Below are positions 3,891-14,038 of a stretch of 64,000 bases of DNA, one piece after another; positions within the stretch are counted from its first letter, which is position 1; every line of letters begins with the position of its first letter. The stretch covers positions 2,703-66,702 of the forward strand of contig CAWHIM010000042.1 of the NCBI GenBank assembly GCA_963829245.1. The letters are read 5' to 3'. Position numbers and translations under genes: made by a program. Below the pieces are notes generated by a model. It made no database searches and was not told the origin of the DNA. It worked only from the letters and a program-made list of their open reading frames with translations. The DNA is from an uncultured bacterium. GTDB lineage: Bacteria; Desulfobacterota; Deferrimicrobia; Deferrimicrobiales; Deferrimicrobiaceae.

Positions 3891-4842
3891 TCACCGGAGG
3901 ATCCCCCGGACGACGACATCCACCGCTTCCTCTTCCGTCAGTCCCCGGGCCATCAGCGTCTCGACCTGCTTCTTGTCCACGCTCCCGATGGCCGCCTCGT
4001 GCGTCAGTTTGGCGCGGTCGTCGGTCACGAGGAGCCTCGGGACGGCGCTGACGCGCGCATCCTTCCCCTTCACGATCTCCACGCAGTCGACGTGGCCCCT
4101 CGCACCCGGCGCGTTCCCGACCGCTTCCCCGACGACCTCGCTCACGCAATGGTCGGAGGCGACGATCCGGCTCTTCGCCAGTCCTCTCGCCTTCTCCCCG
4201 TTCAGGAACAGGGACTCCTTGACGCGGATCGCATCATTCTTTTTCCCGTAGACCCGGGCGTCCAGCTCGCAAGTGGCGTCCTTTCCGATGTCGGCCTCGT
4301 AGTCGATCCGCAGCTCCCCGGCCGCTCCCTGGACGAGTTTGAACAGGCTTCGGTAGGACCCTCCCTCGTCGATGGTGATCCTCGCCGTGGGCAACACCTC
4401 GACTCCGCCCTCTTCGCCGTGGTAATGCGTTTCCGAATATTCGAGAGCGGCATGTTTCCCCACGTGGATCCGCGCGTCCATCACGTGGCGGACCTTCACG
4501 GCGTTCGGGAACATGCAATGCGCGAGAAAGCTTGCTTTCGCGCCTTCCCCCACGAGGAATTCCGAGACGATCTCCTGCGTGCCTTCCTTCGGGAGGACGC
4601 CGAAGCACAGGTGGACCGGGTGCTCGACGTGGACCCCGGGATCGACCGTGATCTTCGCCCTGACGCCGGTCGGGGTCTCCTCTCCCTCGATGTGGACTCC
4701 GGGGGCGTCGTTGCTGCGAAGGATCCTCCGATGGCTCACCATCAGCCCGGCGATTTTTCCGTCGGAGAGTGACGGCCGGGTCGCCGCCGCTCGCCTCGTA
4801 CGCCTTGGACATCGCCAGGAATTCCTTCGTAGAGTCACTCAT
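3891..4842 (-). CDS. SufB/SufD family Fe-S cluster assembly protein (one apparent frameshift near 4750)
   Basis: SufBD-family sequence. N-terminus MSDSTKEFLAMSKAYEASGGDPAVTL overlaps the sufC stop (ATGA-type coupling), then the reading frame shifts. Confidence 0.7.
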
Positions 4843-5584
4843 GGAGCAGGACCTCCCCGGGAGGCGTGCTCCCATGGGGGCACTCCCGGCAATGGTTCTG
4901 GAAAAAGCGGCCGATGGCGAGGGGATCGCCGGTCTTCAGGATGGTGCCACCGCACAAGGAGGAAGCCCGGTCCGCCGATGCGGCGATTTCGTTCTGGTGG
5001 GTGATCAGGAGCACGGAGGCCCCGTTCTTCGCAAGGATTCGCACGGCGTCCAGAATCCGGTTCAGGGAGAGCGCGTCGATGCCGGAGTCCGGTTCGTCCA
5101 GGATGGAGAGCCTGGGGCCCATCGAGAGGATGGATGCCAGCTCTACGCGTTTCCGCTCCCCGCCGCTCAAGGTGGCGTCGACGGTTCGCTGGAGATACCT
5201 GTCCGGCGGAAGGCCCACCATGACGAGGCATTCGCCCGGAGAAGGGCCGCTGCCAGGAGAGCCGTGCCTTCCCAGTTCCAGGTATTCCCGGACCGTCAGG
5301 CCCTCGAACCGGGCGGGTTCCTGCCAGGCAAGGGTGATGCCTCGTTTCGCCCGATCCGAGATGGGCAAGGCGGTGATCTCCTCGCCCCAGAAGAAGACTT
5401 TCCCGGACGTCGGGGAAAACCCGGATAGGCCCATGATGACCGAGGAAAGGGTCGACTTGCCGGACCCGTTCATCCCGAGGATCGCGTGGATTTCCCCGGG
5501 GAGCACGTGCAGGTTGAGATCGTGAAGGATCGGTTTGCCCCCGACGGACATTCCGACGTCGATAAGGTCCAGCACGGAGATCAC
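4835..5584 (-). CDS. sufC: Fe-S cluster assembly ATPase SufC
   Basis: ABC ATPase with Walker A GMNGSGKST, signature LSGGERKR and D-loop ILDEPDSG; SufC-type N-terminus. Confidence 0.85.
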   Translation of the reverse strand: MISVLDLIDVGMSVGGKPILHDLNLHVLPGEIHAILGMNGSGKSTLSSVIMGLSGFSPTSGKVFFWGEEITALPISDRAKRGITLAWQEPARFEGLTVREYLELGRHGSPGSGPSPGECLVMVGLPPDRYLQRTVDATLSGGERKRVELASILSMGPRLSILDEPDSGIDALSLNRILDAVRILAKNGASVLLITHQNEIAASADRASSLCGGTILKTGDPLAIGRFFQNHCRECPHGSTPPGEVLLHE

Positions 5585-5634
5585 CGCCCCTCGGCGCTTC
5601 GGGAAATGGGATTCCCGTCAGCGGTTACTCGCCT

Positions 5635-5919
5635 TCAACCCTTCATCGCCTGCCGTGCGATCCGCTCCTTGATGAACGCCGAGAAAGCGGCCTCGTCGGG
5701 GAAGCGGATGGCACCTTCCGGGCACAGTTTTCCGCAGGTGCTGCACTCCACGACGCAGTTGTAAGGGTTTTTCACCCGGGACTTCCCGGCGGCTTCATCG
5801 AGCTCCAGGACGTCGTTCTTGCAGAAATCGACGCAGGTCCGGCACCCCGTGCACTGGTCCGGGTCGATCGTCGGGTACCATGGGATCTCCTCTCTCGGGA
5901 TCCCGCGCCAGGTCTTCAT
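5635..5919 (-). CDS. 2x[4Fe-4S] ferredoxin
   Basis: Two CxxCxxC..CP motifs (CTGCRTCVDFC, CVVECSTCGKLCP); 94 aa. Confidence 0.75.
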   Translation of the reverse strand: MKTWRGIPREEIPWYPTIDPDQCTGCRTCVDFCKNDVLELDEAAGKSRVKNPYNCVVECSTCGKLCPEGAIRFPDEAAFSAFIKERIARQAMKG

Positions 5920-5931
5920 GGCTGCCTCCGG

Positions 5932-6291
5932 TCAGGCGGCATTGGCGACCATCCCCTTGATCGCCTCGACGGCCTCTTCCGTGGTCTTGTTCCGGATGTC
6001 GAGAGGCACCATCCGGGACTTGTCGAACCCCGCGGCATCGAGCGCATCCCGGAACATCTTCTCCTGCATCCGCGGGTCGCACGCGGCGATGTACAGCCTG
6101 TCCGTATCCTTCCCCGCCAGCAGGACCTTGAGGAATTCCTCGCCGTCCCCGACGCAGAGCTGCGGGTGCAGGCACACGTAATCGAAGATCTTCTCCCTGC
6201 GGATATCGGAGAGCACATTCATGATGTCCATCTTCTTGAAGCTCGGGCAGGTCCCCTGGCAGTTGCAAAGAATGAATCCCTTCTTTCCCAT
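5932..6291 (-). CDS. small Cys-rich putative iron-sulfur protein (MvhD/FlpD-like?)
   Basis: 119 aa with FILCNCQGTCP and later Cys motifs loosely resembling the hydrogenase delta-subunit family; assignment tentative. Confidence 0.4.
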   Translation of the reverse strand: MGKKGFILCNCQGTCPSFKKMDIMNVLSDIRREKIFDYVCLHPQLCVGDGEEFLKVLLAGKDTDRLYIAACDPRMQEKMFRDALDAAGFDKSRMVPLDIRNKTTEEAVEAIKGMVANAA

Positions 6292-6463
6292 GGCGAACTC
6301 CTTTCTGCCCCATCAAACGTTATATCTGCATCCGTAGATATGATGCACGGGAAAGCGGAAAAGATCAACAATAATGCGACACGGAGTAATAGCGATGAGG
6401 CCCGAGGTAAGACGGAGGATTAGCGGGAATAAGTGTCTGAAAGGATTGGAGGAATATCGTCCG

Positions 6464-6934
6464 TTATCTTTCGTCCCCGTGGCCGAAGAGGACCTTCAGG
6501 CGGCGGTGGAGTTCGTCGCGGACGGATCGGAACGCATTGAGGCGGGTTTCTTCTGTTCCGGTGACGCACGCCGGGTCGGGAAGCCCCCAGTGGACACGGT
6601 GCGCCTTCCCGAGGAATACGGGGCAGACCTCCTCGGCGCAGAGGGTGATCACGGCGTCGACGGACCCGGCGTCGATGGAATCCAGCCCCTTGGATCGGTG
6701 ACCTGAGATGTCGATGCCGATCTCCTTGAGGACCTGGATCGCCTGCGGGCGGACAGGGGAGGGGGACGATCCGGCGGAAGAGACCGTTACCCCTTGAGAA
6801 GCGAGAGAGCGGGCGATCCCCTCGGCCATCTGGCTCCTCGCGGAGTTGGCGACGCAAAGGAACAGGATGTGTCGCGGCCGTTTCGCCTGGAGTTCCGCGG
6901 CCTCGGTCCTCCAGTCCGCGGGTCGAGCACTCAT
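6464..6934 (-). CDS. arsC: arsenate reductase, LMW protein-tyrosine-phosphatase (thioredoxin-coupled) type
   Basis: P-loop CVANSARS plus downstream Cys residues; start MSARP overlaps the arsR stop (ATGA); the long upstream ORF extension is an artefact. Confidence 0.85.
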   Translation of the reverse strand: MSARPADWRTEAAELQAKRPRHILFLCVANSARSQMAEGIARSLASQGVTVSSAGSSPSPVRPQAIQVLKEIGIDISGHRSKGLDSIDAGSVDAVITLCAEEVCPVFLGKAHRVHWGLPDPACVTGTEETRLNAFRSVRDELHRRLKVLFGHGDER

Positions 6935-7332
6935 CGCTTTGCCGCCGGACGCCGCCGGCCGGGCAGGGTCATCTTTCGCTCGCAGATCGCCATTGGGCCG
7001 ATCGACCTCGCCATTGCCGCCCGCTCCCGGTCTTTCGCGACGACCGGATCGTCGTTCAGCCAACTCCGGAGGTTCCGCAGCATACGTGTGGCATACGGGG
7101 AGTCGTTCCCGCGGTCCAACGAATAGTGGACCCATTTCCTGTCCCGCCGGTCCTTGATGAGTCCCGCTGCCCGGAGCAGGAAGAGGTGCTTCGACACGGT
7201 GGACTGCCCGAGGGAGAGGATCGCGATGACCTGGCAGACGCACATCTCCCCGCCTTCGAGGATCTTGAGGATCCGGACCCGGGTAGGGTCCGCGACGGCC
7301 TTCAAAACGGTCTCGTAATCGCGCAGTCCCAT
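6931..7332 (-). CDS. arsR: ArsR/SmtB family metalloregulator
   Basis: wHTH with metal-binding-site-like EMCVCQV; first gene of the arsR-arsC pair. Confidence 0.85.
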   Translation of the reverse strand: MGLRDYETVLKAVADPTRVRILKILEGGEMCVCQVIAILSLGQSTVSKHLFLLRAAGLIKDRRDRKWVHYSLDRGNDSPYATRMLRNLRSWLNDDPVVAKDRERAAMARSIGPMAICERKMTLPGRRRPAAKR

Positions 7333-7343
7333 CTGTCGTCTCC

Positions 7344-7369
7344 CATATCGTCAATGACCGAATTGAAAG
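7344..7369. promoter_or_regulatory. putative ArsR operator/promoter motif (copy upstream of arsR itself)
   Basis: catatcgtcaatgaccgaattgaaag: inverted repeat GTCAA-N8-TTGAA related to the other copies. Confidence 0.45.
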
Positions 7370-7439
7370 ATCGTCCCGCCGGAGCGACTATCCTTCACGA
7401 CTATCTTACACGTTCCCTTATTCGCCGGGCAAGGAGGCA

Positions 7440-7553
7440 GATACGGCCGTAGTCGGACCGCCGGAGGAAGGAAATGGCCGCGAAGGCGACACCCGGTTCG
7501 CGCCTTCCCGACACGGCCGCGAGAGGCGCCAAGCCCACCGTTACGATGACCAT
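7440..7553 (-). pseudogene. remnant 5' end of a TauE/SafE-like gene (duplicate of 12091-12474)
   Basis: Encodes ..TMVIVTVGLAPLAAVSG.., matching METIIVVTAGL.. of the full copy; homology is lost after ~35 codons. Confidence 0.45.
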
Positions 7554-7578
7554 GGTATCCACGGCATCCTCATCCCTT

Positions 7579-7633
7579 TGACATATCGTCATTTAACGAA
7601 TTGACATTATAGGGCGCGGGATAAATAATATCC
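7579..7633 (+). promoter_or_regulatory. operator/promoter cassette copy 1 (TTGACA -35 at 7601-7606, AT-rich -10)
   Basis: tgacatatcgtcatttaacgaattgacattatagggcgcgggataaataatat, near-identical to the copies at 12493 and 13629. Confidence 0.5.
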
Positions 7634-7754
7634 ACCAGCCTGATATTTCTTGAAACGGTAATTCGGGCGCCCTGAGAATCGGAATGTGTTTGCACCTGCC
7701 CACTCGTCCTGGAATCCGGAAGATCCGCCGGGATTCCGGTATGAAACGTAAGGT

Positions 7755-7900
7755 GTGACCCTCGCGCCCCACAGGATTCTTGCGATATTTGCTCATCCGG
7801 ACGACGAAACATTCATGGCCGGAGTGTCCCTGACGAAGTATGCGGATGCCGGTTGGGAGTATCCGTGCTTTGCGCGACGCACGGCGAGGCCGGACGTCGA
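7755..7900 (+). pseudogene. truncated, frameshifted 5' fragment of a PIG-L family deacetylase gene (duplicate of 12678-13385)
   Basis: RILAIFAHPDDETFMAG..LTKYADAGWE matches the intact paralog; a 1-nt deletion then shifts frame and homology ends by ~7900. Confidence 0.55.
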
Positions 7901-8012
7901 GGAGACTCCAACCGTGCAGGGGAGAACATCTTCCGTGTCCCATTGGTGTCCACATTTCTCATATGGAAGTTGTTCGGGGGAAAGACAGGCAAAACAATAA
8001 TTATAGTATATA

Positions 8013-8024
8013 CAGCATATGCTG
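8013..8024. promoter_or_regulatory. perfect 12-bp palindrome CAGCATATGCTG in an AT-rich island upstream of the Cys-rich AbrB-like gene
   Basis: Self-complementary 12-mer inside a ~70-bp AT-rich tract (7990-8045) in an otherwise ~68% GC window. Confidence 0.4.
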
Positions 8025-8073
8025 ATGTTTCAGCAATAGGTGCACAGCATGATTACGGGGGAGGGGAGGAGAG

Positions 8074-8358
8074 ATGGACAAGAAGACAAAAAGCGTTTCC
8101 TGCTGCGGACCGACGGGGAAAAGCTTCGCAGGCTGCCGGGTCGAATCCCTTATTGCGGTCGACGACCGTGGGCAGATGGTGCTTCCCAAGGACCTGCGGG
8201 TCAAGGCAAACATCAAGGGGGGCGACAAACTTGCTGTGATCACCTGGGAGAAGGAGGGGAAGGTGTGCTGCCTCTCGCTGATCAAGGCCGAGGAGTTCGG
8301 CGGAATGATCAAGGGACTGATCGGGCCGTTGATGGGTGACGTGCTCAAGAATATCTGA
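8074..8358 (+). CDS. AbrB/MazE/SpoVT-type DNA-binding protein with Cys-rich N-terminal extension (vicinal CC pairs)
   Basis: C-terminal swapped-hairpin motif DDRGQMVLPKDLRVKANIKGGDKLAV; N-terminus SCCGPTGKSFAGC plus a later VCC pair; GGGAGG RBS; ends 14 nt before arsM. Confidence 0.6.
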   Translation: MDKKTKSVSCCGPTGKSFAGCRVESLIAVDDRGQMVLPKDLRVKANIKGGDKLAVITWEKEGKVCCLSLIKAEEFGGMIKGLIGPLMGDVLKNI

Positions 8359-8371
8359 AGGAGGGATGGAG

Positions 8372-9199
8372 ATGAAAGCTGAAGATATTTTGAAATACGT
8401 GAGGGATCGATATGCCGGCATCGCGAAACAGGAAGGGTCCTGCTGCGGCCCATCCGCATGCTGCGGCGCCCCCGAGGCGGCGGAAGAAGCGAGTGGCCGG
8501 ATCGGTTATACGGAAGGGGAAATGAAATCGGCACCCCGGGAGTCCAACTTGGGACTCGGCTGCGGCAACCCGACAGCGCTTGCTTCCCTGCGGGCAGGGG
8601 AGACCGTTCTGGACCTGGGCTCGGGAGCGGGCTTCGACTGCTTCCTGGCGGCGGGACAGGTCGGTCACGGAGGGAAAGTCATTGGCGTCGACATGACCGC
8701 GGAGATGATTCAAAAGGCCCGCGAGAACGCCCGAAAGGGCAACCATGAAAACGTCGAATTCCGGTTGGGGGAGATCGAGCATCTGCCGGCTGCCAATGAC
8801 TCCGTGGACATCGTCATCTCCAACTGCGTCATCAACCTTTCTCCGGCCAAGGACAAGGTTTTCGCCGAGGCCTACCGGGTTCTCAAGCGGGGAGGCAGGG
8901 CAATGATCTCGGACATCGTCCTTTCCGGGGATCTGCCGGAAGCTGTTGCCGGTTCCCTGGCCGCTTATGCCGGATGCATCGCCGGGGCGATCCGGGAGGA
9001 AAAATACCTTTGCCTTATGGAAGCAGCGGGGTTCCAAGACGTCCATGTCGTCCAGGAGAGCCGATTTGAAATCGCGGAAATCGAGATTGACGCGTATGCC
9101 TCGAGCATTGCAGGGAATTTCAACATCCTTCCGGAAGCGGTCCGGGAAGCAGCCAGGTCAGTTTTGAGTGTGCAAGTCTTCGGGAGAAAGCCGTCGTAG
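8372..9199 (+). CDS. arsM: arsenite S-adenosylmethionine methyltransferase
   Basis: N-terminal Cys cluster CCGPSACCG, class I SAM-MTase motif LDLGSGAG, downstream conserved Cys residues; AAGGAGGG RBS. Confidence 0.85.
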   Translation: MKAEDILKYVRDRYAGIAKQEGSCCGPSACCGAPEAAEEASGRIGYTEGEMKSAPRESNLGLGCGNPTALASLRAGETVLDLGSGAGFDCFLAAGQVGHGGKVIGVDMTAEMIQKARENARKGNHENVEFRLGEIEHLPAANDSVDIVISNCVINLSPAKDKVFAEAYRVLKRGGRAMISDIVLSGDLPEAVAGSLAAYAGCIAGAIREEKYLCLMEAAGFQDVHVVQESRFEIAEIEIDAYASSIAGNFNILPEAVREAARSVLSVQVFGRKPS

Positions 9200-9209
9200 G
9201 AGGATGCCT

Positions 9210-9600
9210 TGATGTACGGCAAGAGATCTTTCCAGGAGAACTACGAGAGGTACCAGCCGGGGATCCTTTGATTCCTGTCTCGCCTTGTGGGCGAGGAGGA
9301 GACCGGAGACGTGGCTCTCCGGGTGGATCGGGGGCCTGAATATGGTCCTGTGGCGCCGTCCAGGCGAAGTCATCCATCATTCCGACCAAGGGTGCCAGTA
9401 CCTCGGGTCGGCGCGGAAGCCGCGGCGTGGCTGGAAAGGGAAGCCAGGAGTTTCACCGAGTTCCTCTTCCTGCACCGGGCGGTGCCCGCGGAAGTGGGAG
9501 CCACCCTGGCGGACGGAGGGATTCATGCCGAGGGAATCATGGAGACGATGGATGGAGAGATCCTGCAGATCGCGGTCCGGAAATATTTTCGCTGACGTCA
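9210..9600 (+). mobile_element. degenerate IS3-family transposase (OrfB/rve) remnant, multiply frameshifted
   Basis: Fragments VIHHSDQGCQY (DDE-integrase HSDRGSQY motif) and MET..GEILQIAVRKYFR (MESFFGTLK..RKYF-like C-terminus) lie in different frames. Confidence 0.55.
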
Positions 9601-9622
9601 GAACATACGGGAGGAAAGAGAG

Positions 9623-10521
9623 ATGGGCATCAACAGACGGAACTTCCTGAAGGTCGCGGGGGCGGCCGGCAGCATGCTGCTCGCGGGGGGGGCCAAGTCG
9701 GCCTGGACCGCGCAGACCCCGGGAGGAAGTGTCGAGTTCTACGGGATCCTCATCGATACGACCAAGTGCATCGGCTGCCGCGCTTGCGAGGAGGCGTGCA
9801 ACGCACAGAACAGTCTGCCCAAGCCGGAAGTTTCCTTTTCCAGCGAGAGCGTGTTCGAGAAGAAAAGGGAGACGACCCCGGACGCCTTCGTTGTCGTCAA
9901 TCGGTTCCCGAACGGGAAGAGCCCGGAGAAGCCGATCTTCGTCCGGAGACAGTGCATGCATTGCACCGAGCCTTCCTGCGCCTCGGCCTGCCTGTGCAAG
10001 GCGATGGAGAAGATGCCCGAAGGACCGACCGTCTACCACAAGGACCGCTGCATGGGATGCCGATATTGCATGATTTCGTGCCCCTTCGATATCCCGAAGT
10101 TCGAATACAACAGCCCTACCCCGTACGTGAAGAAGTGCATCGGATGCCCCGATCGCGTGGCGAAGGGTGAACAGACCGCGTGCGCGGAAGCCTGTCCCGA
10201 GGGTGCGACCCTGTTCGGAAAGCGGAGGGATCTGATCGAGGAAGCCAAGAAAAGGATCTACCAGAACCCGGAACGGTACTACCCGCACATCTACGGCGAA
10301 CATGAAGTCGGGGGAACGGGCTACATGTACCTCTCGGCCGTCCCGTTCGAAAAGTCGGCTTCCGGACCGACCTGGGGACGAAGAATTACCCGGAACTGAC
10401 GTCCGGATTCCTGTCCTCCGTTCCTCTCGTGGACATCCTCTGGCCGGCGGTCCTGTTCGGCTTCAGCTACCTCATTTCCGACAAGGAAGAAGACGGGAAG
10501 GAGAACAACCATGAAAAGTAA
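9623..10521 (+). CDS. Tat-secreted 4Fe-4S ferredoxin-type subunit (NrfC/HybA/DsrO-like), one frameshift near 10375
   Basis: RRNFLK twin-arginine signal, four Cys clusters; C-terminal TM anchor (..ILWPAVLFGFSYLISDKEE..) only in the +1 frame; ATGA-type overlap with next gene. Confidence 0.8.
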
Positions 10522-11818: not shown

Positions 11819-11939
11819 ACACTTACATGGGCAGGTCCCTTCGCCGAAAGTATTTAAGCTGGGCCCATGCAGGAGGATTGCCGTTTTTGCCGTCCGCAAC
11901 GCGATGATGGAAGGGGGCTTTCAAGTTTTCTTATATCGC

Positions 11940-12052
11940 CAATTCTCGAAACGGGCCACATGGCCGAGAGTGGGGCCATGGTCGCCATGCGGAAGTTTAC
12001 CGAGGATATAATGTCGAACCAACCGGCGAATGAAACCAATGATGGAGATTGA
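11940..12052 (+). pseudogene. 3' fragment of an AhpD-like carboxymuconolactone-decarboxylase-family gene (duplicate of the 13422-13631 3' end)
   Basis: ETGHMAESGAMVAMRKFTEDIMS matches ETGHMVEKGAMAAMRKFTDDVLS of the intact copy; the N-terminal part is absent. Confidence 0.5.
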
Positions 12053-12090: not shown

Positions 12091-12474
12091 TTACCGCAAG
12101 AGGGTCCATATTTTGTATAAGGTCATGATGACGATGAGGACGCCGAACAGCTGCTTGATCCGTGCGCTCGGCATGTAAAGGCTGGTGATGCGGGCGCCGG
12201 CGAACGAGCCGGCCGCTCCGGCGACCAGGAGCACCACCGTCAGGGTCGGATCGAAGTGCGCGGTCGCCACGTGGGGAATGAGGGAAGCCAAACACCGAGA
12301 AAAGGGCGGTTACGCCATTCAGGAGAAGGCTCAGGGGCTGCACCTGGTGCACCAGGTCGGGGAGGAAACAGTCCGAGGAAGGGAATGGCCGCGAAGGCGA
12401 CCCCCAGCCCGAGCATGCCGGATACGACGGCAGAACAGGGTCAAGCCGGCCGTGACAACGATGATCGTTTCCAT
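12091..12474 (-). CDS. TauE/SafE (DUF81)-like small membrane protein, apparently frameshifted
   Basis: N-terminus METIIVVTAGL.. and C-terminal TM region ..AGAAGSFAGARITSLYMP..LFGVLIVIMTLY lie in different frames. Confidence 0.5.
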
Positions 12475-12830
12475 GGCGTCCTCCCGCTACGTTGATCATA
12501 TCGCTCAAATAACGAATTGACATTATAGCGCGTCGGATAAATAATATCCACCAGCTTGAATTTGTATGAAACAGGAAACCGGGAGCAGGGAGGATCGGAA
12601 TGCGTTTGCGCCTGACCACTCGTCCTGGAATCCCGGAGATCCTCCGGGATTCCAATATGAAGCGGAAAGTGTGACCCGTGTCTTACAGGATTCTTGCGAT
12701 ATTCGCGCATCCAGACGATGAGACGTTCCTTGCCGGAGGAACCTTGACGAAGTATGCGGATGCCGGGTGGGAGGTGTCCGTGCTTTGCGCGACGCGCGGC
12801 GAGGCCGGACGGCGGGGAGAATACGGAAAG
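12371..12830. repeat. segmental duplication copy B (intact side)
   Basis: Pairs with 7456-7900. Confidence 0.6.
12493..12550 (+). promoter_or_regulatory. operator/promoter cassette copy 2 driving the PIG-L / AhpD-like genes
   Basis: tgatcatatcgctcaaataacgaattgacattatagcgcgtcggataaataatat; TTGACA at 12517-12522. Confidence 0.5.
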
Positions 12831-13421: not shown

Positions 13422-13631
13422 ATGGATGAACGCACCAAAGAACTGATCGCAATCGGCGCATCCGTGGGCGCCCACTGCCAGCCGTGCCTCACCTGGCATA
13501 TGAAGAAAGCGCGTGAACTGGGGATCGACGACGAGACGATCCGGGCCGCGATCGAAACGGGCCACATGGTCGAGAAAGGCGCCATGGCCGCCATGCGGAA
13601 GTTTACCGACGATGTCTTGTCCGGTAAATGA
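13422..13631 (+). CDS. carboxymuconolactone decarboxylase (AhpD-like) family protein with CxxC
   Basis: 69 aa; AhpD-core signature AHCQPCLTWH. Confidence 0.7.
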   Translation: MDERTKELIAIGASVGAHCQPCLTWHMKKARELGIDDETIRAAIETGHMVEKGAMAAMRKFTDDVLSGK

Positions 13632-13738: not shown

Positions 13739-14038
13739 TTGAGGAAGCTGGAAATCTACGAGCCGCCGTTGTGCTGTCCCACCGGGGTGTGCGGGCCGGC
13801 GCCCGATCCCGCCCTGGCGAAGCTCCAGGAGGACATCCTTCGGTGGAAGAAGGCGGGCGTCGTCGTCGAGCGGCTTGCGATCAACCAGGTCCCGCAGCGG
13901 TTCATGTCGAATCCGGCGGTGGTCGACCTGCTGACCCGCGAGGGGCAGGAGGTCCTGCCGATCGCCCTGCTCGACGGGAAAGTCGTCTGCAAGGGGAAAT
14001 ACCCGACGTACGACCAGGTCACCCGGGAGGGGATGTAG
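13739..14038 (+). CDS. arsD: arsenical metallochaperone/repressor ArsD
   Basis: PPLCCPTGVCG motif and ..LDGKVV..GKYPT ArsD fold; TTG start 6 nt after AGGAGG. Confidence 0.85.
   Translation: MRKLEIYEPPLCCPTGVCGPAPDPALAKLQEDILRWKKAGVVVERLAINQVPQRFMSNPAVVDLLTREGQEVLPIALLDGKVVCKGKYPTYDQVTREGM

Follow-up and report, generated by a model that had tools for sequence, protein, structure and literature searches.

The regulation and the real purpose of hgcAB, the genes behind neurotoxic methylmercury, are both open questions; the abundance of hgcAB genes is a poor predictor of methylation, and only one regulator has been tested so far, the ArsR-like protein of P. mercurii ND132, which makes hgcAB responsive to arsenic and to S-adenosylhomocysteine. 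Comparative work has pointed to other candidates: a putative regulator lies upstream of hgcAB in 112 genomes and is co-expressed with hgcAB (McDaniel et al. 2020, PMC7438021), and Zhang et al. 2023 (PMC10349881) put forward a prlF/mazE/abrB-like gene upstream of archaeal hgcA as a possible hgcAB regulator, reporting it ahead of hgcA in eight confirmed methylators, including six archaea. Both probably belong to the family catalogued as NF040962, ‘HgcAB-associated protein HgcC’, to which the ND132 regulator is unrelated. Here we analyse a member of this family that is encoded ahead of arsM, the gene for arsenite S-adenosylmethionine methyltransferase, in 64,000 nucleotides of an uncultured Deferrimicrobiaceae bacterium (the window; GCA_963829245.1, contig CAWHIM010000042.1, positions 2,703 to 66,702). 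Comparison of sequences across relatives brings out its fold, gene order, conserved cysteines and a candidate operator with a fixed promoter position; from these we infer that the protein binds that operator, represses transcription and has a metal(loid) as its effector.

The closest described systems each share part of what we find at this locus. The window protein scores above the NF040962 cut-off and has the same small AbrB-like architecture, but its partner is arsM; no hgcA was found in the 64-kb window (no HgcA motif and no tblastn match), and because no hgcAB is present the protein falls outside the contextual definition of HgcC. As with ArsR/SmtB repressors (R773 ArsR, AfArsR and CgArsR), its gene is the first of an ars operon and apparently autoregulated, with a putative operator overlapping the promoter, and the protein has at least three cysteines as potential ligands of an S3 As(III) site; CgArsR has an N-terminal vicinal cysteine pair and a distant cysteine. 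ArsR/SmtB proteins are winged helix-turn-helix proteins, whereas the window protein has a predicted swapped-hairpin beta-barrel. With AbrB, SpoVT, Sso7c4 and MazE it shares, by sequence profile and predicted fold, the DNA-binding domain and a C-terminal helix that follows it, but those proteins have neither a cysteine-rich tail nor an internal CC pair. They take their signals from partner proteins (AbbA, toxins) or through GAF domains rather than from metals, and AbrB sites are degenerate, whereas the HgcC family has a short, well-defined putative TCAG/CTGA half-site.

Two further systems, ArsD and MerR, have no sequence or fold relation to the window protein and illustrate how cysteine clusters sense or carry soft metals. 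ArsD, present in the window, carries the As(III)-binding CC-x4-C cluster as LCCPTGVCG, adopts a thioredoxin-like fold and passes As(III) on to ArsA, and MerR, in which Hg(II) is held by three cysteines from two subunits, is a helix-turn-helix activator that distorts DNA. The proposed HgcC site would be analogous to the independently evolved S3 site of ArsR and tri-cysteine site of MerR. An earlier reading of this stretch, made from its sequence only (the sequence-only reading), had held that an AbrB-fold metalloid sensor here would be a new regulator type. This stands in part: the family is already catalogued as NF040962, and it or a similar protein has been proposed as an hgcAB regulator, whereas the searched literature (subscription-only papers lay outside the search) holds no report of the arsM linkage, cysteine clusters or operator of the HgcC family.

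An HgcC-family protein with a predicted AbrB-type fold

The hgcC-like gene (8074-8358, forward strand) is preceded by a ribosome-binding site, GGAGGGGAGG (8060-8069), recognized by reading the sequence and ending 4 nt before the ATG. It encodes 94 amino acids, MDKKTKSVSCCGPTGKSFAGCRVESLIAVDDRGQMVLPKDLRVKANIKGGDKLAVITWEKEGKVCCLSLIKAEEFGGMIKGLIGPLMGDVLKNI, opening with MDKKTKSVSCCGPTGKSFAGCRVES and later containing KVCCLSLIK. NF040962 matched this product with 115.9 bits (cut-off 70), residues 21-88 aligning to model positions 2-69/70, and the AbrB looped-hinge-helix model TIGR01439 matched with 33.8 bits (cut-off 28.3); the Pfam model MazE_antitoxin (PF04014) remained slightly below threshold (21 versus a gathering score of 24.7). 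A profile built from 49 diverse relatives retrieved AbrB-family regulators, Sso7c4 and SpoVT from the PDB with E-values of 5e-5 to 1e-3. The AlphaFold monomer had a predicted local distance difference test score (pLDDT) of 83-93 at residues 21-80 and below 50 in most of the tail, and Foldseek searches with this model placed SpoVT, C68, Sso7c4 and AbrB at the top, with MazE also found (probability 0.9-1.0 and target TM-score 0.5-0.7, at E-values of only 0.04-0.3). Pfam and NCBIfam scans with HTH_5 and NF033788 gave no match, unlike the neighbouring ArsR at 6931-7332, and in the NCBIfam scan the ArsD family model gave none either.

On the strength of these profiles and the predicted structure, we assign the 94-aa protein to the AbrB/SpoVT swapped-hairpin class, which bears out the domain call of the sequence-only reading. 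The predicted layout consists of a disordered, basic, cysteine-rich tail (residues 1-21), the swapped-hairpin domain (22-71) and a C-terminal helix (72-92) that may have a role in oligomerization. The N-terminal extension, previously put at about 30 residues, is shortened to about 20, as residue 21-22 is where the NCBIfam match begins and where the AlphaFold model becomes confident.

The stop codon ends at 8358 and arsM (8372-9199, forward strand; NF008823, 340 bits versus a cut-off of 263) begins 13 nt further on, with a GGAGGG ribosome-binding site in the gap (8360-8365). arsM is thus the immediate neighbour, as previously described, at a distance of 13 rather than 14 nt. No terminator-like site was found on the forward strand between the two genes, and they are probably co-transcribed.

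Relatives precede arsM or hgcA in bacteria and archaea

Homologs numbered 937 in a large protein database, where nearly all of the best 120 are 92-94 residues long with a CC...C tail and a VCC pair, and formed 425 clusters in a 50%-identity library. For gene context we scanned one genome per GTDB species and took the best 80 of 391 loci. The bacterial loci come from Deferrimicrobium and other Desulfobacterota, Syntrophia, Nitrospirota, Chloroflexota/Dehalococcoidia, Spirochaetota and Actinomycetota, and the archaeal loci from Methanothrix, Methanoregula and other Methanomicrobiales, Methanoperedens and Thermoplasmata. The immediate same-strand downstream gene is arsM in 47 loci (all matching NF008823), so the ars linkage that the sequence-only reading had expected of homologs is found, and hgcA in 25 (all matching NF040863). 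The contig ends after the hgcC-like gene in three loci, and of the other five, one has arsM with a frameshift, one has it 1.5 kb downstream and one just upstream, one is next to other methyltransferases and one copy is an orphan. The hgcC-like gene accordingly comes first, directly ahead of arsM or hgcA and never downstream of this partner, in 72 of the 80 loci. The substrates of both partner enzymes are thiol-seeking, As(III) for ArsM and Hg(II) for HgcA.

Judged from these sequences, partner type does not track protein phylogeny. An arsM-linked and an hgcA-linked protein (L005 and L007) share 96% identity over the core, nearest neighbours have different partners in seven pairs, and close relatives in Deferrimicrobium genomes (65-70% identical to the window protein) stand directly ahead of hgcA-hgcB. 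A partner-specific protein signature was sought and rejected, given these seven pairs and similar cysteine counts (mean N-terminal count 3.35 in arsM-linked versus 3.12 in hgcA-linked proteins, that is, no difference by partner). Some genomes hold one arsM-linked and one hgcA-linked copy. Remote members (33-38% identity) are followed by arsM (L085, L086), another S-adenosylmethionine methyltransferase (L087) or proteins of unknown function (L081).

Two loci with unusual contexts deserve separate mention. The remote member in a low-GC genome (L081:3950-4000 and 4001-6719) is 36% identical to the window protein and scores 93 bits with the HgcC model, above cut-off; the next genes encode uncharacterized proteins of 229 and 416 residues, not ArsM or HgcA, and the upstream region still contains TCAGaatatTCAGaatatTCAG, with TCAG repeats. 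The orphan copy, in a Deferrimicrobium genome (L003:6001-6988), is directly followed by a convergent msrA, whereas a relative (L004) has hgcA-hgcB between these two genes, which suggests that hgcAB was lost or gained at this spot.

A conserved candidate operator at a fixed promoter position

The hgcC-like gene of the window lies behind an AT-rich stretch (7960-8049; 33-35% GC, with flanks at about 55-68%), confirming the promoter island that had been noted at 7990-8045. Within it we place a -35-like hexamer, AAGACA (7982-7987), and, after a 16-nt spacer, a -10-like hexamer, TAGTAT (8004-8009), both on the forward strand. These hexamers are weak and are tentatively positioned by their spacing to the putative operator, as in relatives: in the upstream alignment the window aaGACA does not share columns with the cTTGACA of relatives, so the -35-like hexamer was assigned from spacing rather than from the alignment, TAGTAT was placed from the position of a TATAnT box in relatives, and a consensus promoter scanner made no call of TAGTAT at 8004-8009. 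Directly downstream, the putative operator comprises three half-sites, ACAG-catatg-CTGA-tgtt-TCAG (8012-8033; tACAGcatatgCTGAtgttTCAG), the first beginning 30 nt past the start of the AAGACA hexamer. Its first two half-sites form the perfect 12-bp palindrome CAGCATATGCTG (8013-8024), which the sequence-only reading had singled out and which we find once in the 64-kb window. A lone palindrome of this length is weak evidence, because about 16 perfect ones are expected by chance per 64 kb; this one is meaningful because it is conserved in relatives, its core being identical in L001 (TTCAGCATATGCTGAA). The unit CTGA-N4/5-TCAG likewise has its sole copy in the window at 8022-8033. Possible additional, degenerate half-sites (ACAGcATGAt, 8044-8053) coincide with a weakly conserved TGAT block 16-20 nt past the third half-site in the alignment.

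Relatives share the architecture [T/A]CAG-N6-CTGA-N4/5-(TCAG|CTGA) upstream of their hgcC-like genes, and palindromes such as CTGATTAATCAG, CAGAATATTCTG and CAGCATATGCTG occur in most loci, 40-70 nt ahead of the start codon. The two-half-site motif CTGA-N4/5-(TCAG|CTGA) was present in 54 of 77 upstream regions, versus 0.45 (maximum 3) in dinucleotide shuffles and 0.9% of background windows; the three-half-site motif was present in 33 of 77 regions and 2 of 11,694 background windows, and 200 shuffles gave none. Arsenic-linked and mercury-linked copies both have the motif, and an alignment of seven upstream regions drawn from arsM- and hgcA-linked loci showed CAG, CTGA and TC.G as the invariant operator columns. 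A remote arsM-linked member (33% identity) has TCAG-N6-CTGA after its TTGACA.

The motif also keeps its distance to the promoter. Among the 23 bacterial loci with both TTGAC and the three-half-site motif, the first half-site lies 27-31 nt after the start of the conserved cTTGACA in 19, a spacing that puts the putative operator directly after the -10 box and over the transcription start. In 16 of 19 archaeal loci, the CTGA-N4/5-TCAG/CTGA unit begins exactly 18 nt ahead of the TATA box, and a further half-site follows the TATA box. Such placement over the promoter argues for repression. Because the motif is common to bacterial and archaeal promoters, it is not a basal promoter element, and the HgcC-like protein is the most economical candidate binder because it is the only protein common to all these loci; ArsR is unlikely to bind the conserved operator, as an ArsR gene lies within 6 kb in only 15 of the 80 loci. 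Sequence comparison thus gives good, if indirect, support to the predicted DNA binding of the family, and the proposal of the sequence-only reading that this protein is a regulator gains strong comparative support from an operator that bacteria and archaea alike keep at a set place in the promoter.

Arrangements of the half-sites vary between lineages. In Methanothrix, Methanoperedens and Thermoplasmata loci (L028, L033, L042, L055, L074 and others; about 20-75 nt before the hgcC start) they bracket the TATA box as CTGA-N4-TCAG-N6-TTAAATA-N1-2-TCAG/CTGA, whereas mercury-linked Methanomicrobiales have direct repeats, CTGA-N5-CTGA, in place of this arrangement. One metagenome-assembled genome (MAG; CAZODI01) holds two paralogs, one ahead of arsM and one ahead of hgcA (L046 and L058), whose half-sites differ, TCAG-N5-TCAG-N6-CTGA versus TCAG-N6-CTGA-N5-CTGA, and may allow separate or cross-regulation. 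A wider regulon with additional operator copies was rejected: there are none elsewhere in the window, and the 6-kb flanks on either side of the 80 loci gave two GC-rich chance matches in coding sequence. A search for a structured RNA or riboswitch in 7300-9700 returned only one sub-threshold chance match.

Five cysteines in the tail and core

The vicinal cysteines described in the sequence-only reading are present as an N-terminal cluster, C10-C11 with C21 (CC-x9-C; codons at 8101-8136; residues 9-21, SCCGPTGKSFAGC), and as an internal pair, C65-C66 (codons at 8266-8271), at the start of strand beta-4 of the AlphaFold model. Their conservation, on which that reading depended, is high among the 327 relatives with full coverage: C21 is kept in 287 (88%) and the internal CC in 295 (90%), while 299 (91%) have at least two and 240 (73%) at least three N-terminal cysteines. 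All 80 genome loci have the internal CC (C65 and C66 in the window protein) and, before [RK][VI]E, the cysteine that corresponds to C21. The layout of the N-terminal cysteines varies among relatives and includes CC-x7-9-C, C-x8-CC and C-x-C-x5-C.

One homolog departs from this pattern in its reading frame. In a Dehalococcoidia MAG (CAZWIP010000139; L041:5974-6252) an in-frame TGA stands at the second cysteine of the N-terminal CC, MINQDDNSLC-TGA-TPDNIPISGCKVES, with operator-like TCAG repeats, a ribosome-binding site and the ATG all upstream of it. The TGA may encode selenocysteine in a variant protein or may be a nonsense mutation; a hairpin downstream of it was not significant (z = -1.04), and an Rfam scan of the locus returned nothing.

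A candidate metal(loid)-released repressor and its alternatives

On balance we lean modestly towards the 94-aa protein being an autoregulated repressor of the AbrB/SpoVT class that is released from DNA by a thiol-seeking metal(loid) bound at its cysteines. A dimer or higher oligomer would bind ACAG-N6-CTGA-N4-TCAG at 8012-8033, between the -10 box and the transcription start of the protein's own promoter, and would thereby silence the bicistronic hgcC-like/arsM transcript. The metal(loid), As(III) here, would bind the flexible N-terminal C10, C11 and C21, possibly together with C65 and C66, and pull the basic tail and strand beta-1 off the DNA, so that arsM is derepressed. The same switch, acting through the same operator, may govern hgcAB in other organisms, where the effector would possibly be Hg(II) or As(III). 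Because proteins up to 96% identical also precede hgcA (25 of 80 loci), the signal may be any thiol-seeking metal(loid) or something else.

Several points weigh against this proposal. We know of no AbrB-fold metal sensor that has been described, and ArsD, another cysteine-rich ars protein, was initially regarded as a regulator before it proved to act as a metallochaperone. The most distant relatives sometimes have C21 or C65 substituted, and neighbouring cysteines on a beta-strand face opposite sides, so C65 and C66 need not chelate jointly. The arsM:hgcA ratio is not a family-wide estimate, since the 80 loci, taken as best matches to a query that is itself arsM-linked, are biased towards its relatives. 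The 94-aa protein is also not the sole candidate arsenic sensor in the window, because a canonical ArsR is encoded in the same ars island, and a strong promoter further upstream (7601-7629) could read through into the hgcC-like gene, with no forward-strand terminator found to stop it; given ArsR and this promoter, arsM may not be controlled by the 94-aa protein alone.

The operator and gene-order evidence would fit equally well if the same autoregulated AbrB-type repressor answered to another signal, be it thiol oxidation or disulfide stress, sulfide or polysulfide, an Fe-S cluster or zinc on the cysteines, or a methyl-cycle metabolite, and we regard this as a rather unlikely alternative. Nearly identical sensors for two different metals suggest a common, less specific cue, the hosts are sulfide-rich strict anaerobes, S-adenosylhomocysteine is a further signal for the ArsR-like hgcAB regulator of ND132, and the possible selenocysteine of L041 at the CC position would suit redox chemistry. 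A metabolite would, however, lack a ligand-binding domain in this protein, and CC and CC-xn-C motifs are atypical for Fe-S clusters or zinc and typical for As(III) and Hg(II), as in ArsR, ArsD, MerR and MerA. The near-exclusive linkage to metal(loid) methyltransferases (72 of 80 loci, and remote members) points to their substrates as the cues. A DNA-binding protein with no sensing role at all, whether a constitutive autoregulator, a small chromatin-like AbrB protein comparable to Sso7c4 or a type II antitoxin of the MazE/PrlF type, seems highly improbable to us. Some members are annotated ‘antitoxin PrlF’ by JGI, a toxin-antitoxin origin is discussed by Zhang et al. (PMC10349881), and the structural matches include the histone-like Sso7c4 and MazE; yet the Pfam MazE_antitoxin match is below threshold, and the strong conservation of five cysteines in a disordered tail and in beta-4 would go unexplained. 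The toxin-antitoxin reading itself was rejected, as no toxin gene is adjacent and ArsM or HgcA is encoded downstream in 72 of the 80 loci.

A different role for the tail would make the protein a metal(loid) chaperone that captures As(III) or Hg(II) and passes it to ArsM or HgcAB, with DNA binding absent or secondary. The disordered CC-x7-9-C tail is similar to the As(III)-binding CC-x4-C cluster of the window ArsD (13739-14038) and to the N-terminal SCCGPSACC of the window ArsM, the protein shows strict coupling to two enzymes whose metal(loid) substrate must be thiol-bound, and the history of ArsD is a precedent. We nevertheless hold it unlikely that this is the function. A conserved operator at a fixed promoter position and a retained, complete AbrB DNA-binding domain would both be unexplained, and a remote member with no methyltransferase partner still has TCAG repeats upstream. 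ArsM and HgcA are, moreover, structurally unrelated, yet proteins 96% identical pair with either, which argues against a specific docking interface. The two roles are compatible, and chaperoning may possibly come in addition to regulation.

Returning to a repressor released by a metal(loid), we see a substantial chance that the 94-aa protein represents a new structural class of metal(loid) sensor. The broader claim, that the whole HgcC family senses metal(loid)s through thiols on the AbrB swapped-hairpin fold, making it a structurally new class of sensor, and that it forms a shared, ancient switch of arsM and hgcAB in bacteria and archaea working through one TCAG/CTGA operator, is tentative, and we give it somewhat less than even weight.

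The surrounding ars island

The hgcC-like gene sits within a large ars island. Upstream, a divergent canonical ArsR/SmtB repressor gene (6931-7332, reverse strand; PF01022, 59.6 bits; NF033788, 84 bits) lies at a distance of 740 bp, followed by an ArsC-like arsenate reductase of the low-molecular-weight phosphatase type (6464-6904, reverse strand; PF01451, 76 bits; TIGR02691, 118 bits, which is below the cut-off of that model). Further downstream of arsM are an HmcB/HmcC-like gene pair, a PIG-L/BshB-like deacetylase, an AhpD-domain protein and ArsD (13739-14038; NF033727, 104.8 bits). A candidate insertion sequence or transposase remnant after arsM (9285-9650, with an HHSDQGCQY-like motif) was unsupported by Pfam and NCBIfam. 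A small 2x[4Fe-4S] ferredoxin (5635-5919, reverse strand) matched HgcB below threshold (38 bits versus a cut-off of 99) and, weakly, an HgcAB-like fusion model; it is probably a generic ferredoxin near an HdrA-like fragment and SufCD genes.

Part of the island is duplicated. The segment at 7457-7905 (forward strand) is 77-87% identical to 12368-12820 and contains the strong sigma70-like promoter at 7601-7629 (TTGACA-17-AATAAT). The duplication includes the first 50 or so codons of the PIG-L/BshB-like deacetylase, whose copy at 7755-8000 is truncated. The block of hgcC-like, arsM and HmcBC-like genes lies between the two copies, which suggests an insertion or rearrangement. Two gene fragments on the reverse strand, at 11867-12052 and 12091-12291, likewise point to rearrangement: one repeats, in truncated form, the AhpD-domain gene at 13422-13631 (87% identity over 70 nt) and the other represents the C-terminal 65 residues of a TauE/SafE exporter.

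Implications for the HgcC family

In our 80-locus sample, the gene of a protein catalogued only as HgcAB-associated heads arsM operons no less often than hgcA operons. For the arsM-linked copies, the majority found here, ‘HgcC’ is a misnomer, and genome annotation would need correcting. The comparison yields a testable model, built on one protein, one 22-bp site and five cysteines, for the control of both arsenic and mercury methylation in anaerobes, Methanothrix, Methanoregula, Syntrophia, Dehalococcoidia and Deferrimicrobium among them. If metal sensing proves true, an AbrB-fold class would join the known metalloregulator families and offer a new biosensor scaffold, and the operator could serve to predict which methylators turn on hgcAB or arsM under exposure to arsenic or mercury. 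If the switch is indeed shared, hgcAB in many methylators would be induced by the same signal as arsM, and the native role and regulation of HgcAB would be tied to metalloid detoxification.

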